40,621 nt of DNA, taken from a virus. Taxonomy: Duplodnaviria > Caudoviricetes. Of the stretch, positions 38 through 40,555 are shown piece by piece (the stretch's first letter is position 1; each line of letters opens with the position of its first letter). A program made the position numbers and the translations under genes. Location: positions 1-40,621 of IMG/VR virus record IMGVR_UViG_3300017658_000006. One strand, written 5' to 3'. The notes beneath the pieces were generated by a model, which was not told the DNA's origin, ran no database searches, and worked only from the letters and a program-made list of their open reading frames with translations.

Positions 38-122
38 GCCCGGGTGGTGAAATTGGTAGACGCAGGGGACTCAAAATCCCCCGCCGCAAGGCGTGCCGGT
101 TCGATTCCGGCCCCGGGCACCA
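38..122 (+). tRNA. tRNA-Leu(CAA), 85 nt, prophage integration target
   Basis: Acceptor GCCCGGG/CCCGGGC+ACCA; anticodon arm GGGGA-CTCAAAA-TCCCC; long variable arm; T-loop TTCGATT. Confidence 0.97.
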
Positions 123-19488: not shown

Positions 19489-19730
19489 TTCTTGACGATG
19501 ACCCGCTCGATGCGCTCGATCTGAATCGCGCCGCCGTCTTCGCCAGTCACTTCCGTTCGCCCAAGATCCGGCACGAGCTTCTTCAGGAGAATGTCTGCGG
19601 CCTTGATCTGCGTGGGCGTCATCTCGTTCCTCCCCTGCAAGTGCTCATACAGGCGCAGGCCGATGACGGACACCTTGATCTTCTCTTTCCAGGTGTCGGT
19701 AAGCTCGACCTTTCGCTTACGGGCTGCCAT
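19485..19730 (-). CDS. Putative terminase small subunit
   Basis: Coupled upstream of terL; ILLKKLVPDL..EVTGEDGGAI. Confidence 0.7.
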   Translation of the reverse strand: MAARKRKVELTDTWKEKIKVSVIGLRLYEHLQGRNEMTPTQIKAADILLKKLVPDLGRTEVTGEDGGAIQIERIERVIVKK

Positions 19731-20319
19731 ACCGAAGTTCCACGCCATGCTCTCGCAGATGCGGCGCAATCTTGTCCAGCGCCTCGCGGCTGCTTCGGAT
19801 CAGCTCCCATGCGCTCGGGAAGAGCGACTTGAATCCGCCTTCTAGAACTGCGAGCGCGAACTTGTTGCCAGTCAGCCCATGGTTCTTTCCACCAGTCTTC
19901 AACCAGAAGGCGAACCAGTACAGCGCGTTGCCGCTCTTGCTCGAAACGAGTTGGGCGACAGCATCCATCGCACCCCAAGGCTTGGCTACCGGCTCCCGAC
20001 GAATGAAGGCCCCGCGAGGCGCACCGCCACCCGGGACGATGTTTGTCAGTGCCTCAAGGCCGTACTCGGCTACGCGGCTGTCTTCAAAATCGTAAGCGGC
20101 TTGCTCATCCCAGAAGAATGCAATGAACCGCCTTTCGACTTCCAGGCCTGCCGCCCATATGTCTTTGATTTTGTTTATCTTTTCTGAACATACCCCCACA
20201 TCCTTTTGAGCTTCGCGCTCATGGGCATGGATGCGGTTGCCGCACCCCTTCCCTACGTAGAAGGCGAGACCATCGCGAGGGTCGATCAGTTCGTAGACAT
20301 ACCAGCGCGCATTGCGCAT
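19717..20319 (-). CDS. GIY-YIG nuclease-domain protein (200 aa)
   Basis: YVYELIDPRDG..FYVGKGCGNR..H, E, LTN motifs; AAGGAG RBS before the ATG at 20319. Confidence 0.85.
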   Translation of the reverse strand: MRNARWYVYELIDPRDGLAFYVGKGCGNRIHAHEREAQKDVGVCSEKINKIKDIWAAGLEVERRFIAFFWDEQAAYDFEDSRVAEYGLEALTNIVPGGGAPRGAFIRREPVAKPWGAMDAVAQLVSSKSGNALYWFAFWLKTGGKNHGLTGNKFALAVLEGGFKSLFPSAWELIRSSREALDKIAPHLREHGVELRYGSP

Positions 20320-20454: not shown

Positions 20455-20488
20455 TGAAAGAAGCCCGCCAATCCGAAGACTGGCAGGC
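20455..20488 (-). terminator. Intrinsic terminator in the late leader
   Basis: GCCTGCCAGTC-TTCG-GATTGGCGGGC followed by TTCTTT. Confidence 0.7.
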
Positions 20489-20731
20489 AAGGCGCCCTGC
20501 AAAGAAGCGGGCGAGGAGACAAGATCGAGGGCGGTCGGGAAGTCCCAACCCTGCACAGGTTGACGTGCTTGACCCTCACGACTGCGGACTGCTTCTTTAG
20601 GCTGGCTCTCTCGGCTCAACACCCGTAGTGCCTGCACCCGGCGAAATCCCCGGGGCAATCCGCATGCGTGAAGGTGCCGGTTTTGTTTGGGCGCCGTCAT
20701 CGCGCCCGTCCAGCCTCCCGGCAACTGGTTC

Positions 20732-20803
20732 TGGTGGACCGCGTCGGTATCGAACCGACCAGGGATGGCTTGCAGGGCCTTCCTGCGCCCCTGCGCGCAG
20801 CCC
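20732..20803 (-). tRNA. Non-canonical tRNA-Ala(TGC)-like RNA, 72 nt
   Basis: Acceptor GGGCTGC/GCGGTCC+ACCA with G3:U70 and A73; T-arm GTCGG-TTCGATA-CCGAC; loop CCTGCAA; miniature D-arm. Confidence 0.7.
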
Positions 20804-20919
20804 GAAAAGGTTGCCGGGCTTCCACCGGCTGCGGGAAGAGCTGGTTAGGCCCGGCACAGCCATCCAGTGTTATCACTGGCGTCTGCGGTCCCTCTTGGCC
20901 CCACCACAGGGCCAGACTC

Positions 20920-20995
20920 TGGAGCATCCCGGGGAAATCGAATCCCACTCAGCGCGGCTTGGAAGGCCGGCGACACGTCCCGCGTGCTGGAATGC
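20920..20995 (-). tRNA. Non-canonical tRNA-Gly(TCC)-like RNA, 76 nt
   Basis: Acceptor GCATTCC/GGGATGC+TCCA (U73); anticodon loop CTTCCAA; T-loop TTCGATT. Confidence 0.7.
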
Positions 20996-21061: not shown

Positions 21062-21107
21062 GAAACAGAAAAGCCCTGATTTCGGAGAAAGCTCCGCCAT
21101 CAAGGGC
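21062..21107 (-). terminator. tR'-like terminator
   Basis: GCCCTTGAT...ATCAGGGC followed by TTTTCTGTTT, about 50 nt after the late promoter. Confidence 0.6.
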
Positions 21108-21147: not shown

Positions 21148-21192
21148 CTTATACGCAGCGGGATCGTAACATACGGAAAGGGGCTTGCGCAA
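21148..21192 (-). promoter_or_regulatory. Late promoter (pR'-like) with -10-like pause element
   Basis: TTGCGC-18nt-TACGAT with TGn, directly after Q; TATAAG in the initial transcribed region. Confidence 0.65.
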
Positions 21193-21199
21193 GGCGCCC

Positions 21200-21721
21200 T
21201 CAAAGGTCCAGGGAAGGCGCGATCTTTGCCATCGCGGCTCCTCCCGCTCTGCACAGGTGGCGCTCCATCACGGCGACCAACCACCCGGCCAGTTCGCGCT
21301 TCTCGGCATGAAACGCTCGCTCAAACGGACGCTTCCCGGTTCCCCTGCACTCCCTGCATTCCTGATGGCCCAGGGTCTTCGTCCCAGGGATGACCAACTT
21401 CCCGTGGCCGCCGCAGGGCCGGCACGCACTGTCCCGATGCCACGCAAGGCAGGATTTCGCCATGTCCACCGACTGAACCTCTGACATCCTGAGGCGCATC
21501 CCGTTGGCCTTCTGACGGACGAGTTCAGCCAGGATGGCAACCACCGCCTCTGCCGCCCCGTTGTCGCCCAGGAACAGACGTTGCAAGGCCACCGCCAGCG
21601 GATGCTCCCTGCCCGCCAGTCCGAACGCCCCCAGCACGTCCGTATCGCTGTACGTCGTCCTCTCGTCCGTCTGGAGATTGCTCGACCTGATGGCGCTGGC
21701 GTAGCGGTCCTGAATCAGCAT
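21200..21721 (-). CDS. Q: Late antiterminator Q-like protein
   Basis: CRPCGGHG..CRECRGTG zinc finger; last early gene before the late promoter. Confidence 0.75.
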   Translation of the reverse strand: MLIQDRYASAIRSSNLQTDERTTYSDTDVLGAFGLAGREHPLAVALQRLFLGDNGAAEAVVAILAELVRQKANGMRLRMSEVQSVDMAKSCLAWHRDSACRPCGGHGKLVIPGTKTLGHQECRECRGTGKRPFERAFHAEKRELAGWLVAVMERHLCRAGGAAMAKIAPSLDL

Positions 21722-31113: not shown

Positions 31114-31515
31114 CTAGGGCTTCACCACCCCGTCAACGATCTTGTCCAGCCATGCCATGACTTTTGTGCCGATCGCAGCATGCAGGGAGTCAGCCTCCGG
31201 GTCCTTCGTGCTTTTGCTGGTGCTCCGCAACACCGCCAAAACCAAGACGGTCGGGACGGTGAATAGCGCGGCAAGCGTGGCGGCGACAACATGCCAGCTC
31301 GGCACTGATAGCCCGAGCGGCGCAGGCTGAGAAAAGGCGATGGCAAGGCAGACGCCAACGCCGTAGAGGATTGTGGCGACGGCAATGGCTCCGTATCCGG
31401 CAATCCGACGCAGATTCAGATCAAGAGCGAGCCCCGCACCAAATAGATCCACAGCCTCCTTCTTCGAGGCCTTGTCTGGCTCAAGCGGCTCAGGCTCAGG
31501 AAGCTCGTCTGACAA
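31114..31515 (-). CDS. Two-TM membrane protein, candidate Panacea-associated toxin (start uncertain)
   Basis: Overlaps the Panacea stop; two hydrophobic segments. Confidence 0.65.
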   Translation of the reverse strand: MSDELPEPEPLEPDKASKKEAVDLFGAGLALDLNLRRIAGYGAIAVATILYGVGVCLAIAFSQPAPLGLSVPSWHVVAATLAALFTVPTVLVLAVLRSTSKSTKDPEADSLHAAIGTKVMAWLDKIVDGVVKP

Positions 31516-31978
31516 GCTGGGGACGGTAGAAATCGGCAATTGACTGGTTCGAGATGTAGTCCATCCCGTCCTTCCTGGCCTGCGACCAAGGCCCGCCGTC
31601 CACATGCGACATGGTGGATAGCTGCGTTGCAGTGAAGCGGCTGTATCGGTCCCAAACTTGATCGACCAACGACCAGAACTGTGTGTCGTCCGGGCTGGGG
31701 GCCAGCGCCACTTCGCGGCCGGTCTTCGGATCAATCTCCTTGATGTAGCCCTCAATCGGGCGCGAACCGTTGGACTTCAGTTCGCTGTAGAGCGTGCTGA
31801 ACACGGGGCCATATGGCCACGCTTCCGGCTGTTCGGACACCAACGGCTTGTCATGCAGCGCCAGGTTCCAGGCGTGCAGGAAGAACACCAGCTTCTGCAG
31901 TTTGAGATGGGTGAGCTTCGCCCCGCTGCTGTTGGCTTTCTTCAGCAGCGCGTTTGCGACGACGCGAGGGCGGTACAT
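31496..31978 (-). CDS. Panacea (DUF4065/SocA-like) antitoxin
   Basis: VANALL..LTHLKLQKLVFF..EAWPYGPV..LSTMSH..GPW. Confidence 0.9.
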   Translation of the reverse strand: MYRPRVVANALLKKANSSGAKLTHLKLQKLVFFLHAWNLALHDKPLVSEQPEAWPYGPVFSTLYSELKSNGSRPIEGYIKEIDPKTGREVALAPSPDDTQFWSLVDQVWDRYSRFTATQLSTMSHVDGGPWSQARKDGMDYISNQSIADFYRPQLVRRAS

Positions 31979-40424: not shown

Positions 40425-40498
40425 TCCATTGGGACAGCGCAGAGGCCAAACGCGGAACGTTTCGGCCTGTAGCCCGCATGGATGCTGGATTCGTGGCA

Positions 40499-40555
40499 GG
40501 ACTCAAAATCCCCCGCCGCAAGGCGTGCCGGTTCGATTCCGGCCCCGGGCACCAG
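40499..40555 (+). repeat. att core, right copy (3' part of tRNA-Leu)
   Basis: Identical to 67-123. Confidence 0.97.

Follow-up and report, generated by a model that had tools for sequence, protein, structure and literature searches.

Two conserved families of compact-core tRNAs with glycine and alanine identity, represented in a temperate phage

The Phage and its RNA Cassette

The window (the whole stretch of DNA that was analysed, 40,621 nucleotides) is an entire temperate phage of P22-like build, with attachment sites marked by a tRNA-Leu(CAA) gene and the duplicated 3' part of that gene. In a family scan of the window's ORFs, the terminase, portal, major head, ejection and endolysin genes were found on the minus strand, where a cassette runs from the last early, Q-like gene through two small RNAs and a GIY-YIG nuclease gene to terS and terL (Table 1).

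Table 1. Features of the minus-strand RNA cassette and other elements referred to in the text.
Feature	Position	Strand	Basis or remark
tRNA-Leu(CAA)	38..122		marks attachment site
Duplicated 3' part of tRNA-Leu(CAA)	~40472..40554		marks attachment site
Q-like late antiterminator candidate	21200..21721	-	last early gene after ninB/ninG; two CxxC pairs; identity putative
Candidate late promoter	21148..21192	-	TTGCGC, 18 nt, extended -10 TGnTACGAT; by eye
-10-like TATAAG	within 21148..21192, downstream of candidate late promoter	-	by eye
Terminator-like hairpin with T-rich tail	21063..21107	-	between candidate promoter and tRNA genes; fold
tRNA-Gly(UCC), compact-core, T5 tRNA-Gly type	20920..20995	-	76 nt; ARAGORN, homologues, covariation
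5-bp hairpin with T-loop-like 7-nt loop	20813..20829	-	just upstream of Ala gene; kept in close relatives
tRNA-Ala(UGC), compact-core	20732..20803	-	72 nt; ARAGORN, homologues, covariation
GC-closed stem	20676..20722	-	just after Ala gene; kept in close relatives
Long closing stem with variable insert	20573..20674	-	downstream of tRNA genes; separate conserved element
Intrinsic-terminator-like hairpin	20463..20488	-	end of RNA cassette; scanner and fold
LEM-3-like GIY-YIG nuclease gene	19717..20259	-	Pfam PF22945; between RNA cassette and terS/terL
Panacea (SocA-like) antitoxin gene, then small gene with two hydrophobic stretches	31114..31978	-	immunity region
Related 76-nt Ala(UGC) class	loci L056, L060, L067, L076, L082, L084, L085, L087, L090, L099, L103, L104, L118, L119, L121, L123, L130		loci of the 3'-half Ala pattern

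Gene order and sequence motifs lead us to place the two RNAs in the late leader, downstream of Q, and to infer their expression from the antiterminated late transcript. The TATAAG motif presumably occupies the place where lambdoid late promoters carry a pause element, by analogy to lambda pR'. The scanner called neither the candidate promoter nor the hairpin that follows it, and the single terminator that it found, at the end of the cassette, does not by itself exceed chance (shuffle mean 1.1). The Q-like protein matched no named family and no known structure, and its predicted structure was too poor for use (mean pLDDT 44.6). Its named homologues are mostly Variovorax proteins, and the phage host is therefore probably a member of the Comamonadaceae. 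The initial annotation had proposed a collection of homologues of the RNAs downstream of Q in related prophages. The four loci reached via the Q-like protein have no such tRNAs there, and the cassette is thus independent of this Q lineage.

Several neighbouring elements deserve separate mention. The long closing stem, which contains two internal loops and an insert that varies freely, covaries among seven loci (the window, L048 and L602-L606) and has no Rfam match; one copy, in L605, encloses a three-hairpin tRNA-like insert, and the stem may serve in processing, as a bracket around small-RNA cargo. The small hairpin upstream of the Ala gene gave a twister-sister match (E 3.1), which, like the tRNA-Sec (E 5.3) and CRISPR-DR35 (E 1.2) matches from Rfam, is weak and was put down to chance or partial likeness. 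The GIY-YIG nuclease gave a weak match to PD-T4-3, a defence protein, that covers 80 of 256 positions, and the nuclease gene is absent from that place in the relative L048. In the immunity region, the Panacea gene and the small gene after it are likely a toxin-antitoxin pair.

Structure and Detection of the Two RNAs

The Gly RNA has a 7-bp acceptor stem with G1-C72, C2-G71, U73 and an encoded CCA. A 1-nt linker (A) leads to a 5-bp D stem with the 5-nt loop CGGGA, followed by 1 nt, and the 6-bp anticodon stem, with one C bulged on its 3' side, carries the loop CUUCCAA. After a 3-nt variable loop (UGA), the T stem is formed by G49-C65, a bulged U and four further pairs ending at A53-U61, and is closed by the loop UUCGAUU. 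The Ala RNA likewise has a 7-bp acceptor stem, with G3.U70, A73 and an encoded CCA. It has no linker, and its 4-bp D stem with the 4-nt loop AGGG is followed by 1 nt, by a 7-bp anticodon stem that contains one A-A mismatch and bears the loop CCUGCAA (hence C33), by the variable loop CUG and by a perfect 5-bp T stem. Both RNAs keep the GG of the D loop, a feature that the initial annotation did not mention, nor did it mention the bulge in the Gly T stem. Thus, the 7/5 acceptor-T branch, the 7-nt anticodon and T loops and the CCA of bacterial tRNAs are present in both, with one bulge in the Gly T stem, whereas the 2-nt linker with U8, the 5-bp anticodon stem and the 4-5-nt variable loop are absent from both.

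The minimum-energy fold of the single sequence reproduces the Gly cloverleaf exactly. For Ala it is a different fold, so that the Ala cloverleaf rests on covariation. ARAGORN missed both genes at its default setting and found both at the 95% threshold, flagging each as a possible pseudogene. The Rfam tRNA model RF00005 matches neither gene, and Rfam gives the Ala gene no more than a 15-bit tRNA-Sec match; in a whole-genome search of T5, RF00005 also missed the T5 tRNA-Gly. For one homologue, the tRNAscan-SE score given by the depositor is 30.1. When the 800-nt leader was shuffled 1000 times with dinucleotides preserved, ARAGORN at 95% reported one tRNA in four shuffles and two tRNAs in none. 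The claim that two tRNA-like RNAs with the same deviations lie here is thus borne out by ARAGORN at 95% and by the homologues.

Bacterial identity sets, as given in passages of PMC9976931, comprise G3.U70 and A73 for Ala, and G1-C72, C2-G71, U73, C35 and C36 for Gly. The identity elements of both window RNAs match these sets, in agreement with what had been read from the sequence at the outset.

The Gly Family

In a blastn search of 50,697 phage records, the Gly gene matched tRNAG1 of phage T5 (AY692264: 29180-29255) with 81% identity over 69 nt. The T5 gene has the same unusual 76-nt layout, and the differences in the stems keep the pairing; by layout and sequence, the window gene is a homologue of the T5 tRNA-Gly and belongs to the tRNAG1 family. 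The settings differ, since tRNAG1 lies in the large array of a lytic phage and the window gene in the putative late leader of a temperate one. As a query alone, the Gly gene matched 337 records, 206 of them over at least 80% of its length, including Demerecviridae, Vequintavirinae and Vibrio phages, in which the gene is often unannotated. A partial match in Vibrio phage 5P1c proved on checking to be a canonical-type gene.

Patterns restricted to one half of the gene extended the family. The 3'-half pattern gave 119 IMG/VR loci with 82 distinct sequences, of which 81 have the short 5' half. Conversely, all 120 loci of the 5'-half pattern read as tRNAs with a fitting 3' half, and each of their 97 distinct sequences pairs at 6 or 7 of the 7 acceptor positions; 77 of these variants have the length of the bulged T stem and 17 lack the extra base. 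A first pattern was too narrow: among its 43 loci, the tRNAs were the T5-like ones together with L042 and L048, and the rest were matches in coding sequence. A genome-collection scan used the 74-nt Gly type (six loci) and does not bear on the 76-nt type or on Ala.

The pooled Gly set holds 144 distinct sequences, the window included, with a D-arm criterion that ignores the anticodon extension. The length class with the bulge beside pair 49-65 accounts for 122 of the 144, again with the window. Two other readings of the structure were rejected. With a 5'-side bulge in the anticodon stem, 114 and 109 of the 144 members pair at the two extension positions, compared with 140 and 141 for a 3'-side bulge. 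A U49-C65 mismatch was discarded because 49-65 pairs in 122/122 if the next base is bulged, two members having U-A, and because unbulged members exist. The GG and the UUC are kept in homologues, as is a pair at 51-63 that is either G-C or C-G.

In other temperate phages, compact Gly genes also lie before holin, terS or HNH genes. In one close relative (L319:990-1150), a short basic ORF cleanly replaces the Gly gene between the same flanks.

The Ala Family

Neither among cultured phages nor among plasmids did blastn find a full-length relative of the compact Ala gene. A pattern for the 3' half matched 95 loci, of which nine have the exact 72-nt layout and most others are canonical, and a pattern for the 5' half yielded 19 tRNAs among 38 loci, the other 19 being dropped as chance matches. 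A combined pattern gave 120 metagenome loci with 82 distinct sequences. The pooled set comprises 88 distinct sequences in a gap-free alignment, from which the length variants L155 and L187 were excluded; one metagenome locus is the window's own record and was left out of the counts in the pooled analyses.

Both C33 and the anticodon-stem mismatch, to which attention had been drawn at the outset, are present in the window gene, but neither defines the family, since C33 is a minor allele (13/88) and the anticodon stem, mismatched in 67/88, is a perfect 7 bp in 21/88. The encoded CCA is missing in 48/88 members and many metagenome members lie in arrays of 10-30 tRNAs; because of these two features, some Ala members may come from plasmid or chromosomal mobile arrays and not from phages. 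Cultured carriers are Myxococcus phage Mx1, in which the gene is unannotated, and Caulobacter phage CcrPW, which has a variant with a 3-nt D loop in tandem with a canonical Ala(UGC) (L437:1409-1559).

Two further kinds of tRNA were met in these loci. A related 76-nt Ala(UGC) class, found in 17 of the 95 loci of the 3'-half pattern (Table 1), scores 63-67 bits with the compact model and has a 4-bp D stem, a 4-nt GG loop, a short variable loop and a 4-nt linker without U8. At L061:1200-1266 (minus strand), a tRNA with alanine identity (G3.U70, A73), a short D arm and a CCU (arginine) anticodon shares an array with a compact Ala(UGC), and is a candidate mistranslating tRNA.

Covariation in Both Families

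Both families share a 0-1-nt linker, a small D loop with GG, a 6-7-bp anticodon stem and a 3-nt variable loop, and the proposed pairs are kept through change. In the Ala family (n = 88), 94.7% of cells are paired and 17 of the 23 pairs show two-sided change, with slid controls at 36-47%; in the 76-nt Gly class (n = 42), the corresponding values are 99.0%, 16 of 23 and 36-50%. The extra pairs of the anticodon stem are formed in 87/88 and 86/88 Ala members and, with the 3'-side bulge, in 140/144 and 141/144 Gly members. On trees built without the tested columns, these extension pairs underwent 8 and 26 joint changes in Ala and 7 and 9 in Gly, with 0-2 unpaired leaves; with the inner D pairs included, joint changes range over 8-26 (Ala) and 7-12 (Gly). 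Four of five controls made of mismatched column pairs gave 0-5 joint changes, and the fifth, two neighbouring Gly extension columns, gave 7 and was never paired. In the Ala family, the top 14 pairs by corrected mutual information are all predicted pairs. The anticodon loops of both families are 7 nt long with a purine at position 37, and pairing beside the loop is nearly perfect.

These results have to be read with regard to the search patterns. In the Ala searches, the patterns prescribed G3.U70, the anticodon, the outer D pair and the GG of the D loop, and these columns carry no evidential weight; the inner D pairs and both extension pairs were left open or constrained in part. Among the identity elements, G3.U70 and U73 were fixed by most patterns.

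Taken together, the comparative sequence evidence indicates that both RNAs are conserved compact-core tRNA families, neither products of decay nor chance folds. The proposal of the initial annotation that they form a selected class is thus upheld by 144 Gly and 88 Ala distinct sequences with repeated compensatory changes; the homologues are themselves compact and not canonical tRNAs in random decay.

Distribution and Place in tRNA Arrays

Compact genes usually stand where an ordinary one would be expected. Among loci of 0.3-3 kb per side, which are partly redundant, a canonical Ala(UGC) accompanies the compact one in 0/146 and a canonical Gly(UCC) the compact one in 1/277. In the whole records of T5 and KB57, the single Gly(UCC) is the compact one, and the same holds for the single Ala(UGC) in five whole records, one of them 73% complete; CcrPW, which keeps a canonical Ala(UGC) beside the compact variant, is a counter-example. 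The word 'mimics', used at first for these RNAs, therefore sits poorly with genes that in most cases take the Gly(UCC) or Ala(UGC) position within ordinary arrays, whereas the option of a 'substitute', raised with it, fits. Among co-resident tRNAs with other anticodons, 10 of 1733 distinct sequences are compact (Arg, Gln, Met); the loci having been selected for Ala and Gly, this count means that the carriers' other tRNAs are ordinary and does not show a restriction to two isotypes. The ten compact-parsing tRNAs, with Arg, Gln and CAU anticodons, come from L155, L513, L145, L316, L317, L331 and L500.

The two families mostly occur separately and are not a linked pair. Where a compact Ala has a Gly(UCC) beside it, the latter is of the canonical kind at 24 loci and of the compact kind at eight (five distinct Ala sequences, that of the window included), and of 71 compact-Gly loci with at least eight tRNAs, 33 hold a canonical Ala(UGC) and none a compact one. 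In 401 genomes of the betaproteobacterial order of Methyloversatilis, the Ala pattern had no match and the Gly pattern one true match, in the centre genome; neither compact form is a housekeeping gene in those genomes. Three cultured carriers have, besides, a Gly(UCC) of normal length of their own. The compact genes are unannotated in KB57, AhSzw-1, VCPH and Mx1.

The 88 ORFs nearest to the compact genes in 47 tRNA-poor loci encode holins, small terminases, HNH nucleases and unknowns. In three of these loci (L169, L358, L444), a gene for an RNA-binding protein of phrog_850 (420-465 aa), which we take to be Ro60-like, lies directly upstream of the compact tRNAs. A Y RNA reading prompted by this neighbour was set aside, the anticodon arm being intact.

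Processing of the T5 Homologue

The T5 region is present in 14 RNA runs of four studies, and seven different runs were examined as assembled contigs, whose depths were not taken as expression levels. In RIP-seq run X13, one contig passes into Illumina adapter precisely at G1, the first base of T5 tRNA-Gly, and G1 is also where a contig of X11, from the same study, begins. Of the nine adapter places listed, six coincide with annotated 5' ends (Met, Gly, Gln1, Ser1, RNAI, RNAIII), one lies 3 nt from RNA1 and two are without assignment, and 13 further loose ends exist; contigs of other runs read through the 5' site of T5 tRNA-Gly. Although an assembled contig is no proof of a transcript end, these contigs, from one study and for T5 alone, give a hint that T5 tRNA-Gly is cut at G1 like its canonical neighbours. 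Separately, adapter junctions in three T5 runs (L012:3943) mark a 5' end that precedes the RNA1 start of AY692264 by 3 nt.

Relation to Known tRNA Types

According to passages of a review of non-canonical tRNAs (PMC7609411), mammalian mitochondrial tRNA-Ser(UCN) of type I has a 1-nt linker, a small D loop, a 6-bp anticodon stem and a 3-nt variable loop, and keeps GG and T-psi-C. The Gly family has all of these features, as a likeness of design and not of descent, and the Ala family, with a 0-nt linker and a 7-bp anticodon stem, goes one step beyond it. The elbow residues are conserved in both compact families. The mitochondrial tRNA differs in being organellar and serine-specific, whereas the phage RNAs have bacterial Gly or Ala identity and the Gly RNA has its bulge.

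The initial annotation had described the two RNAs as tRNA-Pyl-like. Their geometry does resemble tRNA-Pyl in the 3-nt variable loop and the lengthened anticodon stem (6 bp and a bulge in Gly, 7 bp in Ala), and passages of the same review give Methanomethylophilus alvus tRNA-Pyl no linker, a 4-nt D loop that recalls the Ala family and a 6-bp anticodon stem, bulged on its 3' side, that recalls the Gly family (PMC7609411). However, this is not the closest design. Unlike tRNA-Pyl of the M. barkeri type, the window RNAs and their homologues keep the D-loop GG and the T-loop UUC, as mitochondrial tRNA-Ser(UCN) does; they have UCC and UGC in place of CUA, and U73 (Gly) and A73 (Ala) in place of the G73 that accompanies G1-C72 in the passages of PMC7609411. 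Their identity elements point to host AlaRS and GlyRS and not to PylRS, and no PylRS was found among the window ORFs scanned (16 and 31 in two scans). Judged by architecture and identity, both RNAs are not tRNA-Pyl, and mitochondrial tRNA-Ser(UCN) is the nearer design.

Other unusual tRNAs differ more. Allo-tRNAs, found in bacteria and phages and in some cases active in translation, have an 8/4 or 9/3 acceptor branch (PMC5389517); they alter the acceptor/T branch, whereas the compact RNAs keep 7/5 and alter the D/anticodon half. The T5 tRNAs that rescue translation from PARIS (passages of PMC12409363), with tRNA-Lys, tRNA-Thr and tRNA-Asn as the counteracting species, and a phage tRNA-Tyr that counters retron Eco7 (passages of PMC12409363, PMC10264068 and PMC11555353) are, like the compact genes, phage isoacceptors that differ from those of the host in effector-read regions. 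They are canonical cloverleaves with point changes or high expression, whereas in the compact genes the whole core is rebuilt.

A full-text literature search, with supplements and older papers on T5 tRNAs outside it, found no description of the compact design in phage tRNAs, nor was one found in the passages of PMC4810235, PMC10644984 and PMC13423816 that were consulted. The terms 'phage' and 'tRNAGly' do not occur in the review PMC7609411, and 'tRNAGly' and 'tRNAAla' do not occur in the allo-tRNA paper PMC5389517. T5 tRNAG1 is annotated in GenBank, and the searched papers held no account of its structure and no charging test. The compact class is thus apparently undescribed.

Proposed Function and Alternatives

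We propose, as a reading that we would put at even odds, that the two genes encode phage tRNAs that are transcribed late, charged by the host and used in decoding, and that they are likely to work when the isoacceptors of the host are destroyed or blocked. That they are working tRNAs in one way or another we regard as quite probable, and working tRNAs are favoured over decoys because the compact genes are usually the sole Gly(UCC) or Ala(UGC) of otherwise ordinary arrays. In the proposed scheme, both RNAs would be made from the late transcript and excised by host RNase P, host GlyRS and AlaRS would charge the Gly and the Ala RNA, respectively, and the charged RNAs would read GGA/GGG and GCA-type codons. 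The shorter linker and variable loop might be offset by the longer anticodon stem to give an L-shape, by analogy with mitochondrial tRNA-Ser(UCN) and tRNA-Pyl, both of which fold into an L-shape according to passages of PMC7609411. Against a working Ala tRNA stand the C33 and the alternative lowest-energy fold of the window gene. In the Gly family, the T-stem bulge beside pair 49-65, found in 122/144 members with that of the window, lies in a contact region of EF-Tu and could weaken delivery. CcrPW, with a canonical Ala(UGC) beside its compact variant, fits a non-redundant role as well.

What the rebuilt core would be for is more tentative. The altered D arm, variable loop and upper anticodon stem might allow escape from host enzymes that hit tRNA-Gly(UCC) or tRNA-Ala(UGC); this is our best guess, because the changes lie on surfaces that such enzymes read and the compact forms are genes of mobile elements. 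No effector known to us acts on Gly(UCC) or Ala(UGC) by way of the D arm or the variable loop. Family and defence scans of this prophage recognised no tRNA-targeting effector or toxin, and a link through self-immunity to a prophage tRNA toxin was rejected, none being recognised and the partner of the Panacea antitoxin resembling a membrane protein. Elsewhere, the PARIS nuclease AriB cuts the anticodon stem at 40/41 and contacts the D loop (passages of PMC12409363), and Septu is reported to cut a variable loop (PMC13096335). The toxin FaRel2 has four determinants, including G4-C69 and purine5-pyrimidine68 (passages of PMC11559606), and the window Gly RNA is without these two. Escape from FaRel2 is nevertheless not the reason for the Gly family, since most of its members keep the determinants (G4-C69 in 107/144, a purine-pyrimidine pair 5 in 97/144).

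Alternatively, the RNAs might be working tRNAs whose core has nothing to do with defence, having drifted freely to a self-stabilising form in genes that top up the tRNA pool, which we consider unlikely, though it is the strongest of the alternatives. Its premise is that recognition by AlaRS and GlyRS depends mainly on the acceptor end (and the anticodon), and a compact core, with no U8 and hardly any D loop, may also need fewer host modifications. The structural and slot-filling evidence fits this reading equally well, the identity sets fall outside the core (passages of PMC9976931), and the families are independent, a close relative having a short ORF in place of the Gly gene. In line with a top-up, the late genes use GCA, CGA and GGA more than any other A-ending codon in the eight four-codon boxes (12-13% vs 2-8%). 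However, late genes are not enriched over rightward early genes (GGA 11.6 vs 12.6%, GCA 12.9 vs 12.6%), and a tolerated core might be expected in some chromosomal genes, whereas the 401 genomes held no housekeeping copy.

It is improbable, in our estimate, that the RNAs are decoys, processed and perhaps charged but non-decoding, that soak up tRNA-binding toxins, nucleases or synthetases. Such a role could explain the T-stem bulge in most Gly members, the anticodon-stem mismatch in 67/88 and C33 in 13/88 Ala members, and the canonical and compact Ala carried together by CcrPW. A sponge role has been proposed for array tRNAs in Anabaena, where the tRNAs of the trn array were shown to be charged (passages of PMC8421152). 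The Ala and Gly tRNAs of that array, taken from the accession that we presume to be its own, are canonical, and the array lends no support to the charging of a compact member. On the other side, the 7-nt anticodon loops with purine 37 and the near-perfect pairing beside the loop speak for decoding, 17/97 Gly variants lack the bulge and 21/88 Ala members lack the mismatch, the compact forms replace the canonical gene instead of accompanying it, and a decoy should resemble the host target and not differ from it.

Less probable still is a role as aminoacyl donors outside elongation, which the initial annotation had also offered, with Gly and Ala supplied to cell-wall, lipid or ribosome-rescue enzymes. 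Gly and Ala are amino acids used by candidate enzymes of this kind (Fem/MurM, aminoacyl-phosphatidylglycerol synthases, RqcH). The Gly T-stem bulge could also lower EF-Tu binding, which would suit a donor. Yet no sign of such a function appeared among neighbouring genes: no such transferase was recognised among the 88 nearest ORFs of the 47 tRNA-poor loci, many of these ORFs being without a match. Staphylococcal non-proteinogenic tRNA-Gly has lost GG and T-psi-C, has weak T-stem pairs and has a Fem-type partner, whereas the compact RNAs keep GG, UUC and a strong G-C or C-G pair at 51-63 and have no Fem-type neighbour that we could see. T5, moreover, is among the carriers, and its host is not known to have a Gly or Ala peptidoglycan bridge. 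Finally, decayed pseudogenes or a chance fold, to which the ARAGORN flags, the RF00005 misses and the score of 30.1 for a homologue might point, are refuted by the dozens of compensatory changes in both families and by the fitting 3' half at all 120 loci of the 5'-half Gly pattern, and we give them practically no weight.

Implications

More broadly, it is conceivable, though we would not yet bet on it, that in phages and mobile tRNA arrays a compact tRNA chassis of the mitochondrial/pyrrolysine type has evolved for ordinary amino acids, at least twice, for Gly and for Ala, and sporadically for Arg, Gln and Met, in a form that bacterial synthetases and ribosomes accept and that a putative class of tRNA-targeting immune effectors of the host cannot read. 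If true, this would be immune escape by rebuilding of the core and not by point changes, and it would have gone unnoticed in the model phage T5. Outside mitochondria, reviews describe such a core geometry for tRNA-Pyl, which has its own synthetase (passages of PMC7609411), and the compact families, if confirmed, would widen the structural range of tRNAs handled by the bacterial ribosome. The tRNA sets of phages are also undercounted, as compact genes escape annotation. With T5 and the cultured Klebsiella, Caulobacter and Myxococcus carriers, the question of why phages keep tRNAs becomes directly testable, and the compact genes are potential bait for new tRNA-targeting defences or scaffolds for engineered tRNAs.
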